Notes: generated from the letters alone by a model not told the origin. 64,000 nt of DNA from Anaerolineae bacterium (GCA_049974845.1 JBNGCP010000006.1:22386-86385), one strand, 5' to 3'; positions 23,459 through 32,724 are shown, numbered from the stretch's first letter. Translations and numbers: made by a program.

Positions 23459-24202
23459 CTAAGGCTTGTGCGCGCGGATGAGAAAGAAGGGCAGGTGCGC
23501 GACCTGCGACCACGGCCCCGAACGAGTAGCGGCAGCACTCCGGATCTCAGCCAACCTCGACCGCTCTTCCACCGTCAGAGGCAGGTCCTCAAGGTAGTCA
23601 AAGCGCGAGAGAGCGGGCGGAAAAAGGGTATCGAAGAGCGAGATGTGCACGCTAAACCCTCGCTCCGCGAGAAGCCCGGGCAGCTTTCGACCGACATAAG
23701 GATCGGCGCCGGCACGCGTCAGCGCGCTGATCCATAGCGGACGGCTGCGGATCTCAGGTGGATGCTCGATCATCCCATCGTAGTCGGGTTCCAGCGCGAC
23801 GAAGGCCCCGCCGGGCTGCAACACGCGCCAGATCTCATCCACCGCGAGGGACAAAGGGCTGACCCACAGCAGGGTCACCTGCGAGAACACCAAATCAAAG
23901 ACCCCATCGGCGACCGGCAGCCGGGTGGCATCCGCGGCAAGCTTCGAGGTCCCCCTGGGACTCTGCCACGATCGCAGCGCCGCAAACGCAAGGTCTAATG
24001 CGACCACCCGCCCCCGCGACCGTCGTCGAAGCTCCGCAGCAACCGTACCGAACCCAGTCCCGAGGTCGAGAACGCGGTTGCGGCGAGCCACGTGGACCCG
24101 CCGCAACAAAACCGACCGAGCCGGCGCAAGCCATTCAGCCTGCTGTGCCATCAGCGCCGGCTCCGGCAGCGCAAAGCTGAGGCCGCTATTCATTCGCGCC
24201 AA
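23459..24202 (-). CDS. Class I SAM-dependent methyltransferase
   Basis: It has the SAM-binding motif I (VLDLGTGFGTV) and motif post-I (VVALDL). It is the last gene of the minus-strand rSAM cluster. Confidence 0.75.
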   Translation of the reverse strand: MARMNSGLSFALPEPALMAQQAEWLAPARSVLLRRVHVARRNRVLDLGTGFGTVAAELRRRSRGRVVALDLAFAALRSWQSPRGTSKLAADATRLPVADGVFDLVFSQVTLLWVSPLSLAVDEIWRVLQPGGAFVALEPDYDGMIEHPPEIRSRPLWISALTRAGADPYVGRKLPGLLAERGFSVHISLFDTLFPPALSRFDYLEDLPLTVEERSRLAEIRSAAATRSGPWSQVAHLPFFLIRAHKP

Positions 24203-24208
24203 CGCACG

Positions 24209-26113
24209 CTAACGTCCGCCCCCCGCGCAGGCGCAGGCACACGCACAACCGGCGCAGGCGCACGCGCAGCTGCTGCGACCACCACCACCGCTCCCGCCGC
24301 TGCTCTTTGAGGCCTTGGACATCGCCTCAAAGACGTCACCGGTGACACGATCGACGCCACTAAGGTCGACGAAACCACCCTTAGCACCGGGGATGTTCAT
24401 CGAGCCAGGCAGAACCGCCGCAGCCATGCTGCCCATCGTCGTCTCCGCCCAACCGGAAAAAGAGGCCGCGACGTCGCCGAAGGAGGTCCGCCCCCCGCCA
24501 CTGGGGCGCGCGGTCGGCGCCCCGCCGCCGGCGCCCGAGGTCACGGGTCCGCCGGTCGGGCGCGCCCACATGGGCCAGTAGTGGTAACCTCCATGCGTCA
24601 AGACCGTCGGGTAATTGTCGTTCATCATAACCCAGGGCAGATACTTATCGAGGTATTGCTCGCGTTCCCGGACCTCACCCATCTGTCTGGCTTGCTCCAT
24701 CGCCCGCGAGATCACGCGTTCGTAGTACTCCCGGGTCTGCGCGAGGTCGAACCCCTCCATCTTGGCAGCGGTGGACGTGATCAGGCCCTCCATCGCGGCG
24801 GTGAAATCAATCTTCTCCACCGGCTTGTTCGGATTGCGCTCCAACTGATCCAGGAAATCTTGCTCGTAGGCGTGAATGACCGTGCCCGCCTGTTGAGCCG
24901 CCGTTTGACGGGCATTGTGGCGCTTCTTCTTCGAGCGTCGCAGGTCGGGATCGTCCCACATCTTGAATGCATCGTTGACCTTCACGGTCAACGGATCCGG
25001 CTTCACGAGCGTCACGATGCCTTTTTCCAGCAGACCAAACATGGCCAGGGTGAGAATCTTGTGGAGCGGCAACTCCAACAGGATGGCAGCCTCAGGTGCC
25101 GTGAGCCCGCGCTTGATACCGCCACCCTCCACCTGGGCGATGGGTGGCAGATAGTCGTGGGGCTTTTTCTTCAGACGGACTTCATTGAAGATGACAAGCG
25201 CAATCAGCACCGGAATAGCTGGCAGCATCAGAATGGGCGCAGCAAAGAAGAGCAGGATCGCGCCGCCCGCGAGGATAGCAAAGACGGTGCAGCCCGTCCC
25301 GCCCGAGAACCGGAAGAAGAGCAAAGCCAGGAGGCCCACATTGATGGCCCCAAGGATGAGCCGGGCGCCGGGATTGTCGGCAAGCCACCGGTTCACCAGT
25401 TCGATCAACGTCATGCGCTCGACGCGTGTCATCACCCGCTGCGGGAAAGACACCCCGACCATGCGCGGCCCTGTGAGGCTGACATCCTCCCATTCCCAGA
25501 GGACAACGGTGTGGCCCTGGAACAAGGCCCTGTCTGTAAAGGGCTCCTGCTGATAAAGGGCTTCCTCCGGTTCCACGCCTTCAGGCAAGTGAACGGCGAT
25601 TGCAAGCTCGCTCGCACCACGAACGGATTCCTCGTCAAACCAGGTGGGCGTGATGCGGAACGAGGCAAAATCTCGGTTCGTCGTGTCCTGATAGACCATA
25701 TCCGGCATCGTGGCCTCGAAGTGGAGCGTCGCCGTCTCACCCGGTGAGATGGCCATTTCGCGCAGGTGAATCTCGACGCCGATGTCGACATACTCGGAGG
25801 TCCGAATATCGTTCAAGGTGACGCCATCGATGCTGGCTGTCATGTTGTCGATAGTGTAGTCCCTGTGCGGCAGACCAATGTCGACAATGTCGATGGGCGA
25901 TCCCTGGTTTTCGAACGTGATGTCATAGACCAACCGGGCCGAGGCATCGGGTTGGACGTAGACCTGCAATTCCATTCTCGGCACAGCGAACACGTAGCTC
26001 TGTGCGCTTGCCGGATGGATGCTCGCCCCCAGCAACACAAGCACGACAAAGAGTGACACTACCAAAGAGAGGCGTTTAGACATATCCGTGTTCACCTCCG
26101 TGCGATGCTCCAT
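24209..26113 (-). CDS. Large membrane protein A, DUF2207-like architecture, with C-terminal Gly-rich/Cys-Ala tail (…GGSGGGGRSSCACACAGCACACACAGGGR)
   Basis: It is 634 aa with a signal/TM, a ~230-aa extracytoplasmic domain, a TM cluster, a ~300-aa cytoplasmic domain (YHYWP) and a Gly-rich segment ending in a 7-Cys alternating Cys-Ala tail. It is a paralog of 26140..27915. Confidence 0.7.
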   Translation of the reverse strand: MEHRTEVNTDMSKRLSLVVSLFVVLVLLGASIHPASAQSYVFAVPRMELQVYVQPDASARLVYDITFENQGSPIDIVDIGLPHRDYTIDNMTASIDGVTLNDIRTSEYVDIGVEIHLREMAISPGETATLHFEATMPDMVYQDTTNRDFASFRITPTWFDEESVRGASELAIAVHLPEGVEPEEALYQQEPFTDRALFQGHTVVLWEWEDVSLTGPRMVGVSFPQRVMTRVERMTLIELVNRWLADNPGARLILGAINVGLLALLFFRFSGGTGCTVFAILAGGAILLFFAAPILMLPAIPVLIALVIFNEVRLKKKPHDYLPPIAQVEGGGIKRGLTAPEAAILLELPLHKILTLAMFGLLEKGIVTLVKPDPLTVKVNDAFKMWDDPDLRRSKKKRHNARQTAAQQAGTVIHAYEQDFLDQLERNPNKPVEKIDFTAAMEGLITSTAAKMEGFDLAQTREYYERVISRAMEQARQMGEVREREQYLDKYLPWVMMNDNYPTVLTHGGYHYWPMWARPTGGPVTSGAGGGAPTARPSGGGRTSFGDVAASFSGWAETTMGSMAAAVLPGSMNIPGAKGGFVDLSGVDRVTGDVFEAMSKASKSSGGSGGGGRSSCACACAGCACACACAGGGR

Positions 26114-26139
26114 CAGAACCCAACGCTATACCCCCGACC

Positions 26140-27915
26140 TCAGCGCCCGCCACCGGCACAGGCACAGGCGCAGGCGCAGCCTGCGCACGCACAGGCACAA
26201 CTGCTCCCCGAGCCTCCCCGCGAGACGGTCACACCAGTGGACGGTTTGCTGAGCGTGGTCGGCAGAATGGCAGCTGCCATCCCGCCCATCGTCGTCTCCG
26301 CCCAGCCGGCAAAGGAAGCCGACACATCACCAAAGGTGGTGGACGGTCGCCCTGATCCACCCGAGACAGCCCCTCCACCGATGCTACTTCCGGCAGTGCT
26401 CACCGTACCGCGAGCTTGTCGCGCCCACACGGGCCAGTAATGGTAACCGCCCAGCCTCAGGGCCGGCCTGTAGTTCGGCCGCATCATGACCCAAGGGAGG
26501 TACTTATCGAGATAGGCCTCACGCTGCTCGATCTCGCCAATGCTCGCAGCCTGCTCCATCGCACGATCGATCACCCGACGATAGTACTCCTGGGTATCGG
26601 AGAGATCGAAACCCTCCATCTTCGCTGCGACGCCGTCGACGAGCTTCTGCATCGGGTTGACGACGGGCAGCTCCTTGACCGGCTTGCCGGGATGGACCTC
26701 GATCAGGTCCAGGAACGGATGCTCGTACTCGTGGATCACGGTGCCCTTCTGTTGGGCCACCTGACGGCGATAGCGCTTCCGGCTCTCCGCGTCCTTTAAT
26801 TCGGGCTTGCCTTCCACCTGAAAGTCGTCGACGACCTCCAGGGTGAGAGGATCTGCATCAGTCTGGCGCACGAGTCCCTTTTCCAGCATTCCAAAGACCA
26901 CCAGCCCCAGCACCTTGGTTAGGGGCAGCTCCAGGACGATCGCGGCTTCCGGAGCCGTAAGTCCGCGCTTGATGCCGCCGCCCTCAACTTGTGCGATCGG
27001 GGGAAGATAGTTGGGTTTGAGGCCGCGGATGACGGCGCGAACGATGACGAAGATAAAGAAGGCGGGAATGGCAACGGGCAGACAGAACATAAGGATCGCC
27101 CCGATCACGGGAAGCACCCCGCCCAACCATCGTCCAAGCAAATCCCAGAAGGTGACCTCAATGACGTTGGTCATGCCACGTCGGGGGAACGAGACGCCCA
27201 CCCGATAGGCCTCCGTCAACCGGATGTCCTCGTACCGCCAGATCGCCACGACTCGCCCCTCATCGTCCAGCACCTTGTCGTCGAAAGGCTCATCCTGGTA
27301 GAGAACCTCGTCGAGCTCGATACTCGGCAGCGTCCTGACCCGAATCTCGACGTCACTCGTGCCCTGCACGAGTTCGCCGTCGAACCAGGTTGGCGTGATC
27401 TGCAGGGAAGCGTTCTCCTCGTTGGTCGTATCGGCATAGACCATCTCAGGCGAGTCAAACTCGAGATGCAGTGTCCCCGTCTCGCCCGCCGGAATAGCGT
27501 ACGGCCCTAGATGGATCTCCACGCCAACGTCGATGTATTCTGAAGGGCGGATGTCCGACACCGGATTGCCGTCGATCGTCGCCACCATCTGATCGACGTC
27601 GTAATCGGCGTTCGGCGTGCCGATATCCACAATGTCGATGGGATCTCCGGAGTTCTCGAACGTGATGTCGTAGACGATGTGGGCGGAGCCATCGGGTTGT
27701 ACAGTTGCACTCAGCAATAGCTCGGGCACGGCGAAGCGGTAAGTCTGCACGTAGGGGCGCGCCAGAACAGTGCCGGCGCCCGAGCCGAGAAGACCCAGGA
27801 GCACAGCCAAGGCCACGACCAGCGCCACAGCCCGCCTTCTGATCGTCGGGGCCACCGTCCTCTCGCGCGTGTCCACCCTTCCGTGGGAGTGTCTATGACC
27901 GGCTGGTCGGGTCAT
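26140..27915 (-). CDS. Large membrane protein B, paralog of A, with identical C-terminal tail SSCACACAGCACACACAGGGR
   Basis: The track ORF extends to 27933, but the probable start is ATG 27915..27913. That ATG overlaps the TGA of the upstream rSAM-like gene by 1 nt. It has the same domain order as protein A; the last 21 aa are identical although encoded by different codons. Confidence 0.7.
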   Translation of the reverse strand: MTRPAGHRHSHGRVDTRERTVAPTIRRRAVALVVALAVLLGLLGSGAGTVLARPYVQTYRFAVPELLLSATVQPDGSAHIVYDITFENSGDPIDIVDIGTPNADYDVDQMVATIDGNPVSDIRPSEYIDVGVEIHLGPYAIPAGETGTLHLEFDSPEMVYADTTNEENASLQITPTWFDGELVQGTSDVEIRVRTLPSIELDEVLYQDEPFDDKVLDDEGRVVAIWRYEDIRLTEAYRVGVSFPRRGMTNVIEVTFWDLLGRWLGGVLPVIGAILMFCLPVAIPAFFIFVIVRAVIRGLKPNYLPPIAQVEGGGIKRGLTAPEAAIVLELPLTKVLGLVVFGMLEKGLVRQTDADPLTLEVVDDFQVEGKPELKDAESRKRYRRQVAQQKGTVIHEYEHPFLDLIEVHPGKPVKELPVVNPMQKLVDGVAAKMEGFDLSDTQEYYRRVIDRAMEQAASIGEIEQREAYLDKYLPWVMMRPNYRPALRLGGYHYWPVWARQARGTVSTAGSSIGGGAVSGGSGRPSTTFGDVSASFAGWAETTMGGMAAAILPTTLSKPSTGVTVSRGGSGSSCACACAGCACACACAGGGR

Positions 27916-29222
27916 CACCCACCTCGGGCCCATCCTTCTGGATCACGCGGGCACGCAGCCGCGCAAATGGCAAGGCCAGGGCAGACCTCGCAGCGGGTCG
28001 GCGCCTCCACGCGCTCGCGATAGTCGCGAAAGACCGCGTCGTTCCAGATCGTGTCCCATGAGTCCCGCAGAAGGTTACCCGCACTCCGGTAGGGCCCACG
28101 GGGTGGGATGACCTCACCGGTGGGCTCGATGCGGACGGCCACGTCCCCAGAGCATCGCGGCCCCTGCAGAATCTGGTCCATCAACGACCTGTTTGGATCC
28201 CTTTCCACCGGCGGATCCCAGATGAACCGTGCGTTGGCCATATCAGCGGTCTCCTCGACGGTCGCAGCCACCTGAGCCATGCCCTCGCGGCTGAAGATAC
28301 CCTCGGCCCGCGCGAGCTGTGGATCCGTCGTCGGATAAGCGATAAAGGAGAGATTGTCAGCGCCATTCGCGATGAGCACGTCCACCGTCGCGTTGATGCG
28401 ATCGAGCGTCGCCTGGACCAAGGGGATCTCGGCCACCGCCGCGATCTGATAAGTCTCCAGCCAATCGAGCACGCTCTGTGCCATAAGGAAATCGCCCTCG
28501 CCGCAGAGGCTATCGTGAATCTCTTGGTCGGCCGCAGCATAGAGGAAGGTCACGTGGTCGACGCCGGTCTGACGAAGGTCGGGCAGGAATCCTTCCACGG
28601 CCAAGGTTGTCGCACGTCCCCTGACACCGGCGATCATGCCCAGATCTTCCGCTCGCTCCACAACCCTTAGCACATCGGTCGGCTCACAGCCGTATGGGAC
28701 GAGGATCGTCACGTGCGGGATCCCCACTTCCCAAAGGCGGTCGAGAATGGGTATAATCACCTTCGGCTCCACCAGTGGCACCGTCGCCTGCAGCGGAGCG
28801 ATGAGCTCGGCAGCATAGGGGGAGAGCGAGGCATCCTCCAGATTGAAGACCGGATACGTATCACCGGGCGCCCTAAGTCGCTCAATGAGAGCGTGCACCT
28901 TCGCGATGTCCCCGCGTACGATCTCCTCCTTGGCGCCGGAGAAGTGCGCTCTCAACCTCTCAACGATCTCGTCGGGGGTTCGGCCCTCAAGCAGGCCCTT
29001 GGCAATGACCACACCCGACGCCGTCAAACGAGCGGCAGCCATCGCGTTGGCGATCAGCATCCCGCTGCCATCCTTCTCCACCCGCAGGTGGAATCGGGCA
29101 AACGCGTCGTCGGTCTCCTGCATCACGTGATAGAGCCCGGGCTCTACGGGCGCGGTGGGTTCGGCGCGCTCAAAGGACAGCAAGCGCTTCAACCAGTCCT
29201 GGGCCATAGACGACCTCCTCAC
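27915..29222 (-). CDS. Degenerate radical-SAM/SPASM-like protein (CxxxCxxC lost, SPASM Cys cluster retained)
   Basis: It is 435 aa and aligns along its length with the 30581..32086 rSAM protein (PGLY...RV.EDGSG N-domain, IPHVTIL core). Where the paralog has YACNNACPHC it has no Cys triad. It retains the C-terminal GPRCSGD...CEVCPGLAICAAACP cluster. Confidence 0.65.
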   Translation of the reverse strand: MRRSSMAQDWLKRLLSFERAEPTAPVEPGLYHVMQETDDAFARFHLRVEKDGSGMLIANAMAAARLTASGVVIAKGLLEGRTPDEIVERLRAHFSGAKEEIVRGDIAKVHALIERLRAPGDTYPVFNLEDASLSPYAAELIAPLQATVPLVEPKVIIPILDRLWEVGIPHVTILVPYGCEPTDVLRVVERAEDLGMIAGVRGRATTLAVEGFLPDLRQTGVDHVTFLYAAADQEIHDSLCGEGDFLMAQSVLDWLETYQIAAVAEIPLVQATLDRINATVDVLIANGADNLSFIAYPTTDPQLARAEGIFSREGMAQVAATVEETADMANARFIWDPPVERDPNRSLMDQILQGPRCSGDVAVRIEPTGEVIPPRGPYRSAGNLLRDSWDTIWNDAVFRDYRERVEAPTRCEVCPGLAICAAACPRDPEGWARGG

Positions 29223-29225
29223 AAC

Positions 29226-29942
29226 CTATGCTTGTTGGGGTTGTTGGTATTTTCTTTCGAACAGATCGGGCTCGTAAGCCGCACGTCGCCCCGGACATTC
29301 CCCCCGCGGGCAGAGCTGGCAGCTCTCAAACCGCTCCTCCGTCGGGAATCGAATGCCGGAGATGGTCTTGTTTGGGATCATCAGAAAGCTCTCGGTCAGC
29401 TGCACCCCAATCGCCGCCTCGGGATCCCCGAGAATCCGGAAAAGGGGACGCTGCTGCCGGATCGGCCAATCGGCCAAGGAGCCCGGAGCCATCGTCGACG
29501 TGCGTCCCAAGGCATAGCACTCGTACAGATGGGCGTTAAGCGCCTGCGTCGCCGCCCCCAGCGCGGCCTCCTTGATCGCGTCAGCCCAGTAACGATAGAG
29601 CATATCGTCGAGGCCGTCACTCCAGGTCTGCAGTTCCGCCCCGCACGTGGCGATATAGACGAAAACCCGATGAGCCACCGCAAGGTTGACTCGCAATACG
29701 CGGCTGTGCAGCCTCACGCCGTCGACGGTCACACTCTCGTCGGACCTGTCGTCGACGTAGGCGAGCTTGTACATGGCCTTAGGCCTGGCGATCGCCGCGG
29801 CTGTCTTGAGCAGCCCGGCAAACTCGGCAAGCTGCTGGCTGCCGTCCTTGAGCCTCAGACGTTTGGCCAATGAGCCAAGGTCAGGCTGAAAAACAATGTC
29901 ATCGAGTATGTAAGGTCTCTCGCCGTTATCGATTGCGTTCAT
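29226..29942 (-). CDS. MetH activation-domain-like (AdoMet-binding) protein with C-terminal CxxCxxxxC motif
   Basis: It is 238 aa. The segment LTESFLMIPNKTISGIRF and the preceding PGSLADWP resemble the conserved core of the B12-dependent methionine synthase reactivation domain (E. coli LTESFAMWPGASVSGWYF). The C-terminus is SCQLCPRGECPG. Confidence 0.5.
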   Translation of the reverse strand: MNAIDNGERPYILDDIVFQPDLGSLAKRLRLKDGSQQLAEFAGLLKTAAAIARPKAMYKLAYVDDRSDESVTVDGVRLHSRVLRVNLAVAHRVFVYIATCGAELQTWSDGLDDMLYRYWADAIKEAALGAATQALNAHLYECYALGRTSTMAPGSLADWPIRQQRPLFRILGDPEAAIGVQLTESFLMIPNKTISGIRFPTEERFESCQLCPRGECPGRRAAYEPDLFERKYQQPQQA

Positions 29943-29986
29943 TGTTGTCTGCTATGGTTCCGTTCTGTGCGTGAAAGGTTCTCGGG

Positions 29987-30523
29987 TCACGATCGGTGGG
30001 CCACCAACAGCCCTCGAATCAGGGCCAACAGCCCCAGGCCGATGAAGAGGATCGGCCACCCGATGAAGTCCAGGCCAAGACCGCTGATATTCAGGATCAG
30101 TTCAAAGAAGACCAGGCCCACGAGAAACATGATCAGCCCGATGTTCACCAGGGTCGAACCGGTCCGTATGGCGCTCTCCCTACGCTTGCTCCAACCATAG
30201 AGCATCTCTGCCAAGCCTATACCAGTTGGGGTGATCAGCGCCCACACGTAGGCCCAACTGGTCCAGTGCCCTGTGACACTTTGATAGAGCAGCACCAATC
30301 CTACCATCGTGACAATCCCGCTCAACATTGCGAAAGGCTCACTCAAGGGCGTATCGGCGGCAAGGGCGAAGAGGAAGATCAAGACGCCGGGCAGAATGAC
30401 AAAGAAGGGCCACAGGAAAGCGCCGATGTTGAGCTGCAAAAACTGCCCGACCAGGGCCAGGACCCCCAGGACGATCAGAGCAATACCGAGTGCCCGAACA
30501 AACGCTCTTGGTCCCTCAAACAT
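29987..30523 (-). CDS. Integral membrane protein (5-6 TM), unknown function
   Basis: It is a 178-aa, very hydrophobic protein inside the rSAM cluster. Confidence 0.55.
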   Translation of the reverse strand: MFEGPRAFVRALGIALIVLGVLALVGQFLQLNIGAFLWPFFVILPGVLIFLFALAADTPLSEPFAMLSGIVTMVGLVLLYQSVTGHWTSWAYVWALITPTGIGLAEMLYGWSKRRESAIRTGSTLVNIGLIMFLVGLVFFELILNISGLGLDFIGWPILFIGLGLLALIRGLLVAHRS

Positions 30524-30580
30524 GCCTTTCCTCCTGCGTGATTTGGAAACCCGGCATCCAAAGCGCCCCGCGAACCTGCC

Positions 30581-32086
30581 CTAGCGTCGCGTCCCCGTCA
30601 GGACGCCCTCCTGTGTCGCAGATCGATCGTCGGTGAATGACACGACGCGGCCCGACCCCCGTCGGGTAGGGCGAGAACACCCGCGCTCAGCCGCCCGAAT
30701 CCCGGCCCGCGCTTCTCGCTCCAACCGGCATCCCCCCCCGCACATCTCCAGGTCCGGACAATCCCAGCAGGCCTCCGGCAACCCCGCGGCTTGCGGGTCC
30801 TCCTCACGATTTCGGAAGCTGAGGAAGAGCTCGCTATTCCATATACTCTCCCACGGATCGGCAAGGATGTTGCCTGCGGTGACGTAGTAAGACTGACAAG
30901 GGAGGACGACGCCGTTGGGCTCGATGCAGATCGAGTATTCGGCTGCATTGCAGCGCTTGGGCGGCAGGCCCAGCGCCACCGGGGACAAGCGGCAGTAGTC
31001 GGTCACCGTGTACCAGAGGAACCGCATGTTGAGCCGCTCGGCCTCGTCCCTCACCGCAGCGAGCAGGGCCGCCATGTCCTCAGCCGGAATGGCAGCGGGC
31101 GTACTCGTCCCTCCTCCGGCATGGATAATACCGTTCATCGCGAAGGTCTGTAGACCTAACTCATGGAGAAACCTGACGGTATCGAGGACGTGATCCTGAT
31201 TTTGCCGGGTAACGGTCGTATTGGTGATGGTGTGTATGCCGGCGTCCAGCGCGCTCTGAATCCCCGCAACCGTCTCTTCGAAAGCGCCCTCCACACCCAC
31301 CATCTCATCATGGACGGAGCGGTAGCACGACTCCAGCGTGATCTGCACGTGGTTGAGCCCTGCTGCTGCCAGCGAGGTCGTCAACACTCGATCCGCGAGG
31401 CGACGTCCGTTGCTGTTCATGCCGACGATCAGACCGAGTCCGTCGGCATACCGAACCAACTGCGCCAGGGCGGGATGGAGTGTCGGCTCACCGCCGGTCA
31501 GGATGACGTGAGGAATGCCGATGTCCAGGATCCGATCGAAGACCCGCATCCAGTCGCGCGTGGTGAGCGAAGCCATCGCGAACCGTTCCTGCTCGTTATA
31601 GCAATGTGGGCAGGCATTGTTGCAGGCATAGGTGAGCGCGACGTCCACCTTATAGGGCGCCGTGACGGGCGTGCTGAAGATCGGCTGAAAATCCACAAGC
31701 GGCCCTAGGGCGCACGTCGGACAGATATTGTCGGTCTCTCGCAAACGCCGAACCATATCATACATCGTGGCGACCGCCTCCGAGAGCTCTCCTTTCGTGA
31801 CACCGCGGTACCGACGAATCATCCGGTCTCGCGCCTCGGCCTGCGGGACGTCGTCCAGCGCTAGCTTGACCATCTCGACGGCAGTCGCATTAAGATGGAT
31901 CACGTCGGTGACGTCGATAAAGAGCACGCCCGAGCCATCCTCGTTGACGCGTAGATGCACGCGGCGCTGCCCCCCGTCCAAGACCAAGGGATAGCTGTAG
32001 AGGCCGGGAGCCATTGCCACCGACCCAGGCTGCAACAGAGCCCGGACGGTAGTCATCAGACGATGCCACTCCGACGATAGATTCAT
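30581..32086 (-). CDS. Radical SAM/SPASM-domain maturase with N-terminal extension
   Basis: It has the canonical CxxxCxxC (YACNNACPHCYNE), a GGEPTL SAM-binding motif and a C-terminal SPASM region (CQSYY...CWDCPDLEMCGGGC). The ~120-aa N-terminal domain is shared with the degenerate paralog. Confidence 0.85.
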   Translation of the reverse strand: MNLSSEWHRLMTTVRALLQPGSVAMAPGLYSYPLVLDGGQRRVHLRVNEDGSGVLFIDVTDVIHLNATAVEMVKLALDDVPQAEARDRMIRRYRGVTKGELSEAVATMYDMVRRLRETDNICPTCALGPLVDFQPIFSTPVTAPYKVDVALTYACNNACPHCYNEQERFAMASLTTRDWMRVFDRILDIGIPHVILTGGEPTLHPALAQLVRYADGLGLIVGMNSNGRRLADRVLTTSLAAAGLNHVQITLESCYRSVHDEMVGVEGAFEETVAGIQSALDAGIHTITNTTVTRQNQDHVLDTVRFLHELGLQTFAMNGIIHAGGGTSTPAAIPAEDMAALLAAVRDEAERLNMRFLWYTVTDYCRLSPVALGLPPKRCNAAEYSICIEPNGVVLPCQSYYVTAGNILADPWESIWNSELFLSFRNREEDPQAAGLPEACWDCPDLEMCGGGCRLEREARAGIRAAERGCSRPTRRGSGRVVSFTDDRSATQEGVLTGTRR

Positions 32087-32316
32087 AATTCTCTATGTAT
32101 GTTTACGTACAAAGCGGCGCCGGGTTGCAGCTCGGCCTTGACACAGAGCACCCCCGAGCCGTAACCGAGGCTGCGCCAACCTTCCCCCCAGCGATGTCCC
32201 CGACGTCTAAGTCGGCATTAACGGACTGATCCACCTGTTGAACGCGAGAGAAAAACGGAGGAGATGGGGGTCACCGCGTTGGCAGGAGCGCGACAGAAAG
32301 AGCACGAGCGCAGCGT

Positions 32317-32724
32317 TCACCACTTTGGGGCTTCTTCGATCTGGTAAGAGGCCCCACAGTACGGACACTCGACGAAAATGGCGCCCGCCTTGACCTCAAG
32401 GTTGCCCTTGCTCAGGGCGCCGCCACAGGACCGACACTTCAGCTGCTCTAGCTGAACATCGCCCGACAGGTCGATCTTCTGTACGTGGGTGTGTTCCTCA
32501 TGTTTGGGGCGAACGCGCGTCAGATAGATGAGCACGCCGGCCGCAGCGAAAAGGATCAGACCGACGACGATGCGTATAACCTGTCCCTGCGATCCCACCA
32601 CAAACATAAACCCGAAAAAGGCCACCACCGCGGCAATCAGGTAGGTCAAGAGCTCCATCGCGTTCTCCTCCACAGGCGTTTTGGGTTGCAGCAGGTAGTA
32701 TAGTCGATCCGCCATGCTCGTCAA
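32317..32724 (-). CDS. Small membrane protein with C-terminal zinc-ribbon (CxxC-x15-CxxC)
   Basis: It is 135 aa with two TM helices and then CRSCGG...CPYCG. It is the first gene of the minus-strand cluster; its start may be the internal Met (MELLTYL). Confidence 0.55.
   Translation of the reverse strand: MTSMADRLYYLLQPKTPVEENAMELLTYLIAAVVAFFGFMFVVGSQGQVIRIVVGLILFAAAGVLIYLTRVRPKHEEHTHVQKIDLSGDVQLEQLKCRSCGGALSKGNLEVKAGAIFVECPYCGASYQIEEAPKW

Follow-up and report, generated by a model that had tools for sequence, protein, structure and literature searches.

Organization of the locus

The window analysed here is a 64,000-nucleotide stretch of DNA from an Anaerolineae bacterium (GCA_049974845.1 JBNGCP010000006.1:22386-86385). 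Our subject is a group of genes at 23459–32724 which encodes two enzymes of the radical S-adenosylmethionine (SAM) type with SPASM domains (rSAM/SPASM), one of them apparently inactive, together with two large membrane proteins that end in the same Cys-Ala tail, the candidate target of the enzymes. ORF calling of the window gave eight co-directional and tightly packed open reading frames (ORFs; g1–g8), all on the minus strand, as are all of the window features given below. An earlier note, made by a model from the sequence alone, had described eight closely spaced minus-strand genes here, and every one of them was recovered where it had been placed. The intergenic gaps from g1 to g8 are 230, 57, 44, 3, −19 (an overlap), 26 and 6 bp. 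The G+C content of the window is ∼62% and the locus shows no compositional break. Hypothetical proteins of an Anaerolineae metagenome-assembled genome (MAG) match the window proteins at 100% identity, and no tRNA and no Rfam match were found in the remainder of the window.

The first gene, g1, is a small membrane protein with a C-terminal Zn-ribbon (ORF 32317–32724, 135 amino acids; probable gene 32317–32658). It is followed by g2 (30581–32086, 501 amino acids), a predicted active rSAM/SPASM maturase; g3 (29987–30523), a 178-residue polytopic membrane protein; g4 (29226–29942, 238 amino acids), which weakly resembles the MetH activation domain; and g5 (27915–29222, 435 amino acids), a paralogue of the maturase that is predicted to be catalytically dead. 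The shorter tail protein is g6 (26140–27933, 597 amino acids) and the longer is g7 (24209–26113, 634 amino acids; likely start M11 at 26083). The last gene, g8 (23459–24202, 247 amino acids), encodes a class I SAM-dependent methyltransferase.

The Cys-Ala tail

Both g6 and g7 terminate in SSCACACAGCACACACAGGGR immediately before the stop codon, and the 19-residue tail that they share, CACACAGCACACACAGGGR, contains seven Cys residues in Cys-x-Cys spacing. It is encoded at 26143–26199 in g6 and at 24212–24268 in g7. The earlier note had seen an identical seven-Cys tail on the two large proteins; the tails are indeed the same residue for residue, and their DNA differs in 15 of the 19 codons, every change being synonymous, so that the tail is conserved as protein and not as a DNA repeat. 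A repeat or artefact at the DNA level was considered and rejected on these 15 synonymous differences in the window and on the saturation of synonymous sites across loci. Among 151 distinct tail DNAs taken from other loci, all synonymous codons (the six for Arg included) and all three stop codons occur with the residues unchanged, a constancy that in the metagenome set is partly due to the motif-based finding of the loci; the GGGR-stop part and the genome loci, which were ascertained by the protein body, are free of this bias. The constraint on the tail at the protein level is extreme: the Ala, the Gly and the terminal GGGR residues are as invariant as the Cys residues.

The best homologues of g6 end exactly in CACAGCACACACAGGGR in 118 of 120 cases, mostly in the full 3+4 Cys version, at an overall identity of just 47–80%, and the tail is kept, with limited variation in repeat number, in family members that are only ∼25–30% identical. 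A family profile searched against 1.84 billion cluster representatives returned 921 family clusters (50% identity) at E ≤ 1e-3, 318 of them at E ≤ 1e-30. The general form of the tail is (CA)2-5-G-(CA)3-4-GGGR at the extreme C-terminus. Among the best 150 of the 921 clusters, the 4+3 type, (CA)4G(CA)3GGGR, is the most frequent (44 clusters), followed by 3+4 (32), 2+4 (14), 5+3 (seven) and 3+3 (seven); a further 14 clusters have single-residue variants and 32 have other endings, most of which resemble truncated or frameshifted fragments. The hosts are Anaerolineae/Chloroflexota, 'Deltaproteobacteria', Cloacimonadota and Zixibacteria MAGs, with at least one human-gut contig, and the 4+3 clade is placed in the 'Deltaproteobacteria', Cloacimonadota and Zixibacteria MAGs (names as given by the source).

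A degenerate-codon DNA scan of metagenome contigs for CACACAGCACACA gave at least 120 stretches, and the 80 loci listed contain 84 matches. In 83 of these 84 listed matches the motif forms the extreme C-terminus of an ORF with a GGGR-stop ending, and the motif-bearing ORFs that are long enough to judge are all homologues of g6 and g7 (24–66% identity). No complete short ORF with the motif was found among them, the short ones being cut by contig ends. The sole listed match with a non-C-terminal motif is on the human gut contig OQAB01004852 (L086:2735-4751), which encodes a 332-residue variant in which CACACAGCACACACAGGGR is followed by 31 further residues and is thus internal. This variant consists of a transmembrane (TM) helix, a β-sandwich, a second TM helix, a Gly-rich stretch and the motif, has no cytoplasmic domain and lies directly downstream of an rSAM/SPASM gene that is apparently split by a frameshift. 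A sorting signal of the PEP-CTERM, GlyGly-CTERM or a similar kind was also considered for the tail and rejected, as the tail contains neither a TM helix nor a basic cluster and its last residues are GGGR.

Architecture of the tail proteins

The tail proteins g6 and g7 are paralogues (52% identical), and the g6 sequence is matched at 100% identity by a hypothetical protein from an Anaerolineae MAG. In g6, as in g7, a signal/anchor and an extracytoplasmic β-sandwich precede the TM region, after which come a cytoplasmic domain, the leader-like segment, the Gly/Ser linker and finally the tail. In the AlphaFold2 (AF2) model of g7 the N-terminal anchor is followed by the β-sandwich (residues 32–214; predicted local distance difference test, pLDDT, >90), three TM helices (238–306) and a confident cytoplasmic domain of helical, winged-helix-like form (329–485); the last 120 residues, tail included, are disordered, as is the tail region in each of the two AF2 models. 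A fold search matched the N-terminal domain of M1 aminopeptidases and the lumenal β-sandwich of ribophorin I. Basic residues immediately follow the last TM helix, and the conserved helix before the tail is too polar to span a membrane (maximum KD19 hydropathy of 0.77–0.94); from these two features we infer that the tail is cytoplasmic and within reach of cytoplasmic Fe–S enzymes.

The leader-like segment, FGDVxASFxGWAETTMGxMAAAxLP, is encoded at 26260–26334 in g6 and at 24407–24481 in g7. Alignment of the last ∼135 residues of members from all clades showed a pre-core segment conserved across phyla, roughly LPxLPG-xxFA...V...F...VTxxTNPxP. Across phyla the leader-like segment lies 15–25 residues upstream of the core, and the Gly/Ser linker that separates the two varies in length (about 10 to 45 or more residues). 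The last ∼100 residues are arranged like the leader, linker and core of the precursor of a ribosomally made, post-translationally modified peptide (RiPP), here appended to a membrane protein. Strong conservation extends to the ∼450-residue body, which contains invariant motifs, EGGGIKRGLxAPE among them. At the start of the cytoplasmic domain is an invariant EGGGIKRGLTAPEAA (25085–25129 in g7 and 26941–26985 in g6) which is kept family-wide; the residues just before it are poorly modelled (pLDDT < 50).

The earlier note had called g6 and g7 two paralogous, DUF2207-like membrane proteins of ∼600 residues. The paralogy stands, but the DUF2207 label does not hold at any gathering score. No Pfam or NCBIfam model matches the tail proteins, none of 48 members matched DUF2207 at E ≤ 1 in a Pfam search, and only three of nine diverse members gave faint matches to the DUF2207_C or N-terminal domain (13.9 bits against 33 and 11.9 bits against 24.4). 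The family also has longer members, P0251 (948 amino acids), P0503 (927 amino acids; it additionally carries Pfam PF06439 and PF13385) and P0290, P0297, P0299 and P0305 (766–774 amino acids), all with the Cys-Ala tail. A 298-residue paralogue of the tail protein, found at L037:11638-12534 and L117:5443-6213, has one TM helix and the cytoplasmic domain and lacks both the β-sandwich and the Cys-Ala tail; it lies directly after the rSAM gene in a distant Chloroflexi version of the system.

The rSAM/SPASM enzymes

The sequence of g2 contains the Pfam Radical_SAM (E = 4.8e-25) and SPASM (E = 6.4e-10) domains with the motifs CNNACPHC and CWDCPDLEMCGGGC. The CX3CX2C motif (CNNACPHC) lies at 31601–31624 and the SPASM motif CX2CX5CX3C at 30728–30769, and the canonical rSAM/SPASM enzyme that had been read from the sequence is borne out by both domains and by the CX3CX2C motif. 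Its paralogue g5 is 27% identical to g2, lacks CX3CX2C and retains one SPASM motif, CX2CX5CX3C, at 27951–27992, in agreement with its earlier description as a degenerate rSAM/SPASM paralogue. The same division runs through the homologues: CX3CX2C is present in 77 of 78 rSAM-type ORFs and in none of 63 ORFs of the pseudo type, that of g5, and the corresponding figures for CX2CX5CX3C are 75 of 78 and 35 of 63.

Both enzymes have an additional N-terminal domain of ∼110 residues, at about 31742–32008 in g2 and about 28869–29144 in g5 by profile match. A profile built from 21 such domains matches the RiPP recognition element (RRE) of the lasso-peptide protein TfuB1 (6jx3_B) with E = 3.3e-5, and the PqqD models of Pfam and NCBIfam give weak matches, including Pfam matches to g5 and to the rSAM of a 'Deltaproteobacteria' MAG. 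By these profile matches the shared domain is a predicted RRE of the PqqD type; the suggestion in the earlier note that an extra N-terminal domain could act as a recognition element thus concerns a real domain and agrees with the TfuB1 match. An RRE followed by rSAM and SPASM domains is the layout of sactisynthases such as RumMC2, for which an RRE supplied in trans also works (PMC8188230). Between the RRE and the rSAM core, g2 of the Anaerolineae type has a conserved CP(T/V)C (about 31700–31740 in the window). The active rSAM of one distant locus (L037:10001-11641) has a Cys/Gly-rich C-terminal extension of its own (GGGGCSGCSGSCATGH...).

Although 58 NCBIfam models match g2, all do so far below their curated cutoffs, the best being AhbD with 129.2 bits against a cutoff of 500. 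Scores for the named equivalogues (AhbD, PqqE, GeoRSP, SkfB, AlbA, StsB, ACGX and others) fall below cutoff for g2 and also for the rSAMs of three other phyla. The solved enzymes nearest to g2 are SkfB (2.8e-18) and PqqE (3.8e-18), the margin between them being negligible.

Gene linkage across loci and phyla

The genome set comprises 36 loci, all from Anaerolineae/Chloroflexota MAGs. The g5 gene lies immediately upstream of a tail gene in all 32 of these loci that have upstream DNA, and most loci have g8 after the tail gene; of the 36 loci, 23 have g1 and g2, 21 have g4 and eight have g3, with g4 seen only in the Anaerolineae clade. The metagenome loci belong mostly to the divergent 4+3 clade and usually have the order Zn-ribbon, tail, rSAM, pseudo-rSAM, methyltransferase. 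Fifty loci are well flanked, with at least 3 kb on each side. A true rSAM gene lies within 6 kb in 44 of the 50, and an rSAM or pseudo-rSAM gene in all 50.

The linkage extends to other phyla. One 'Deltaproteobacteria' contig carries genes for a Zn-ribbon protein, a tail protein, an rSAM (PqqD + SPASM), a Fer4/CCG protein, a tRNA-binding-domain protein on the opposite strand and a methyltransferase; a second other-phylum contig has a Zn-ribbon-sized gene, tail, rSAM and methyltransferase, and a third has a 143-residue gene, tail and rSAM. The order Zn-ribbon, tail, rSAM is kept in the 'Deltaproteobacteria', Zixibacteria and Cloacimonas contigs, and the methyltransferase is also present in the 'Deltaproteobacteria' and Zixibacteria versions. 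The dead paralogue is common but absent from the three contigs of other named phyla. The universal core is the Zn-ribbon protein, the tail protein and the RRE-rSAM/SPASM enzyme, usually with the methyltransferase. The recurrent gene set numbers five (Zn-ribbon protein, tail protein or proteins, rSAM/SPASM enzyme, dead paralogue and methyltransferase) and not eight, and g3 and g4 are lineage-specific accessory genes. The eight genes first proposed as an operon are tightly packed and co-directional in the window, but the recurrent unit shrinks to these five.

In an unbiased clustering of the neighbouring ORFs no further partner gene exceeded 13 loci, the recurrences reflecting lineage synteny only, and the cassette has no recurrent protease or exporter. 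A small precursor peptide was considered and rejected: there is no Cys-rich short ORF in the g1–g2 gap or elsewhere in the operon, and no other family occurs in more than 13 loci. The earlier note had proposed that the rSAM enzyme acts on the tail of a large membrane protein, and both of the observations that it held could argue otherwise fell in favour of the proposal. The tail does not occur widely without rSAM genes, as shown by the counts of 44 and 50 out of 50 above, and the rSAM genes are not tied to a different small precursor, there being no Cys-rich short ORF in the operon and no complete short motif ORF among the matches listed; the thioether chemistry suggested with it stays conjectural. 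A Zn-ribbon and rSAM pair on its own, with no tail gene within 10 kb, also exists, at equal distance from every other g2 sequence. A split operon would fit this but is not proved by it, and g1 stays beside the rSAM gene even where the pair is apart from the tail gene.

Several loci carry inserted or additional genes. At L159:11128-12159 (the 'Deltaproteobacteria' MAG JAFGFE01) the 343-residue Fer4 + CCG protein (HdrD/HdrB-like, of the thiol/disulfide type) is encoded between the rSAM and the methyltransferase, the position of the dead paralogue in Chloroflexi, and may point to thiol redox reactions of the tail. Between the rSAM and pseudo-rSAM genes at L052:6708-7421 there are two small PAS-like ORFs (122 and 115 amino acids), and a related cluster is present in about nine metagenome loci. 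IS200-like (Y1_Tnp) ORFs are found between the tail and rSAM genes or just upstream in several unrelated loci (L054:1876-2433, L112:3897-4439 and L038:6029-6625).

The accompanying genes

Two TM helices are predicted for g1, followed by a Zn-ribbon, CxxC-x19-CxxC, at 32356–32436 that is kept in all 92 homologous ORFs, as expected from its earlier description as a Zn-ribbon membrane protein. It ends in EAPKW, and E(E/A)PKW-COOH terminates all 92 homologues (32317–32334 in the window), a second conserved C-terminal motif of the system. The homologues are 111–134 residues long. A sigma-70-like promoter candidate, TTGACG-16-TATACT (ten of 12 consensus positions; a consensus match only), lies at 32697–32724, inside the over-long g1 ORF and upstream of M23. 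Since the homologues are shorter and this promoter-like site occupies 32724–32697, g1 probably starts at M23 (32658) and not at 32724.

The g3 protein is polytopic, with predicted TM segments; it has no Pfam or NCBIfam match, and no model in either names g1. The MetH-activation-domain label given to g4 is a weak one. Pfam Met_synt_B12 (PF02965) scores 23.8 bits against a cutoff of 25, and a g4 profile run against the PDB gave MetH activation domains for all of its top five matches, but these are weak (best E = 0.06 over about 37 residues). The C-terminal CxxCx4C of g4 (29295–29321) is invariant. The g8 protein matches Pfam Methyltransf_11 with E = 2e-18, as its assignment to the SAM methyltransferases would have it, and no NCBIfam equivalogue reaches its cutoff for g8.

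Proposed function and alternatives

We hold it to be somewhat more probable than otherwise that the cassette is dedicated to maturing the C-terminal tail carried by one conserved membrane-protein family. In such a system the RRE domains of g2 and of the dead g5, the latter as a substrate-holding partner, would bind the leader-like segment, and the Zn-ribbon membrane protein g1 would hold the enzyme at the membrane beside its substrate. Reductive cleavage of SAM by g2 would give a 5′-deoxyadenosyl radical, which would take a hydrogen from a carbon of a tail Ala or Gly. A Cys thiolate at an auxiliary cluster could then close a thioether, and repetition of this step would lead to a ladder of intra-tail crosslinks, which may be of the sactionine type (S–Cα) or lanthionine-like (S–Cβ). 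The methyltransferase g8 might then cap a leftover thiol or the terminal carboxylate. By analogy, thioether crosslinking is the most likely chemistry of the tail, because of its seven invariant thiols, the alternating Ala acceptors and the relation of the enzyme to those of the SkfB type.

A broader proposal is more tentative, and we would place it somewhat short of an even chance: that these loci represent a hitherto unrecognized, phylum-spanning class of post-translational modification (PTM) in which a RiPP-style RRE-rSAM enzyme, a dead paralogue that retains only its peptide-binding domain and a Zn-ribbon tether build a thioether ladder on the cytoplasmic tail of a full-length membrane protein. 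The crosslinks of such a ladder might be radical-made lanthionines between neighbouring Cys and Ala residues, and the product would be a permanent structural or redox/metal-active module and not a secreted natural product.

Several points weigh against maturation of the tail by thioether crosslinking. The support for any modification is genomic, not biochemical. The top NCBIfam similarities of g2 (AhbD, PqqE and GeoRSP) are not specific for thioether chemistry, neither the methyltransferase nor g4 has an assigned step, and the cytoplasmic placement of the tail is drawn only from a crude hydropathy scan and the positive-inside rule. Seven loci that form a monophyletic lineage (six of them among the 50 well-flanked loci) have only the pseudo-rSAM, tail and methyltransferase genes within 10 kb, and for one further tail gene (L087) the downstream 5 kb contain no rSAM gene. 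Metal-thiolate binding, for which no enzyme is needed, is likewise typically associated with Cys-x-Cys runs. The tail might be the unmodified, metallothionein-like metal- or Fe–S-binding terminus of a membrane sensor or transporter, with the rSAM pair acting elsewhere or loading the cluster or metal, and this we consider unlikely. It would account for the spacing of the seven Cys residues and for the lineage that retains the tail with no active rSAM nearby, and it would suit the Fer4/CCG (HdrD-like) protein inside the cassette of one 'Deltaproteobacteria' MAG. The host lineages are typically anaerobic, and all of the named hosts are MAGs of uncultured lineages, which also suits it. However, Ala, Gly and the terminal GGGR vary no more than Cys does, whereas a generic thiolate cluster needs none of them and such invariance is atypical for a metallothionein. 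The rSAM bears a predicted peptide-binding RRE, its linkage to the tail spans at least four phyla, and no other candidate substrate recurs near it (13 loci at most).

If the tail is the substrate, its modification need not be a crosslink. The rSAM could epimerize Cα atoms to give an L/D pattern, or convert Cys residues that are then methylated; we rate such chemistry as quite improbable. The strict two-residue periodicity with achiral Gly breaks would fit it, the methyltransferase is nearly always present, and rSAM/SPASM-type epimerases such as EpeE and YydG exist (PMC13012085). Against this, a role as reaction partners is the simpler explanation of the seven invariant thiols, and the nearest solved relative of g2 is a thioether synthase, SkfB, though its margin over PqqE is negligible. 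The layout of leader-like segment, linker and core in the last ∼100 residues could also belong to a true RiPP precursor, with the modified tail being cut off to give a small bioactive peptide and the membrane protein serving only as a giant leader. Release of the tail is very improbable because the body of 450 residues is conserved (EGGGIKRGLxAPE), which implies an independent function, and because the cassette has no recurrent protease or exporter; in addition, the core is constant between species, unlike that of most secreted RiPPs.

Comparison with known systems

The closest parallel is with the maturases of sactipeptides and ranthipeptides (AlbA, SkfB, RumMC1/2, CteB and PapB), which have the same architecture of RRE, rSAM and SPASM/Twitch domains and likewise a Cys-rich substrate encoded beside the enzyme. 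Enzymes of this class crosslink Cys residues to carbons of the backbone or of side chains. The presumed substrate here differs in being the C-terminus of a 550–630-residue membrane protein and not a precursor of 30–60 residues; the motif carriers are membrane proteins of 500–770 residues, whereas the class is defined by short precursors that are cleaved and exported. There is also no protease or exporter, and the enzyme is instead accompanied by a dead paralogue, a Zn-ribbon membrane partner and a methyltransferase. The ACGX-repeat and GRRM systems (TIGR04340 and others) also place an rSAM/SPASM gene beside a low-complexity Cys/Gly-repeat target, and TIGR04340 matches g2 with E = 9e-17 and 61 bits (cutoff 400); their targets are short peptides, unlike those proposed here, and the repeat unit and periodicity also differ.

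Protein-level substrates of SPASM enzymes are known. In the FxSxx-COOH/FxsB system a SPASM-domain rSAM is paired with a target motif at the extreme C-terminus of proteins of various sizes, the rSAM/SPASM enzyme QhpD installs Cys thioethers in a folded protein subunit (QhpC), and sulfatases are a further example. For FxsB and QhpD the motif is unrelated and the enzyme families differ, and their models are absent from the top NCBIfam matches of g2. No motif, carrier or gene set like the present one is known from any of these precedents. In contrast to the diverse carriers of the Fxs system, a single conserved membrane protein carries the tail here, and its core is invariant across phyla. As for the carrier, DUF2207 proteins (PF09972/PF20990) have the same order of parts, an extracytoplasmic β-sandwich, a TM region, a cytoplasmic segment and a Gly-rich C-terminus, and UniRef names one member of the tail family DUF2207. 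The Cys-Ala tail and the rSAM linkage set the tail family apart from DUF2207 as described.

The architecture had not been recognized by the earlier note as a described RiPP or PTM family, and our searches agree, with no curated equivalogue and no searchable paper on the motif. A literature search found no searchable paper with CACACAGCACACA or CACACAGGGR, with DUF2207 and radical SAM together, or with SPASM and these taxa, and for FxsB and ACGX it brought up nothing relevant. The system falls outside every Pfam and NCBIfam model and every searchable paper, and is best described as sacti/ranthipeptide-like with a membrane-protein tail as its presumed substrate. As no searchable paper holds the motif or links the families, it would be a RiPP-like rSAM maturation that is new in the type of its substrate. 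The host lineages, for the most part uncultured, are dominant in anaerobic digesters and sediments. If the reading is correct, it would provide a function for a large family that is currently annotated only as hypothetical, as well as a clean case of an active/dead rSAM pair, and the short invariant core makes the system directly testable. To our knowledge, nearly all RRE-bearing rSAM/SPASM enzymes described make small secreted peptides. The RRE-rSAM machinery of the present loci is apparently committed to a single conserved 19-residue core on a conserved membrane protein, which, if true, would extend RiPP-type chemistry to the maturation of full-length membrane proteins.

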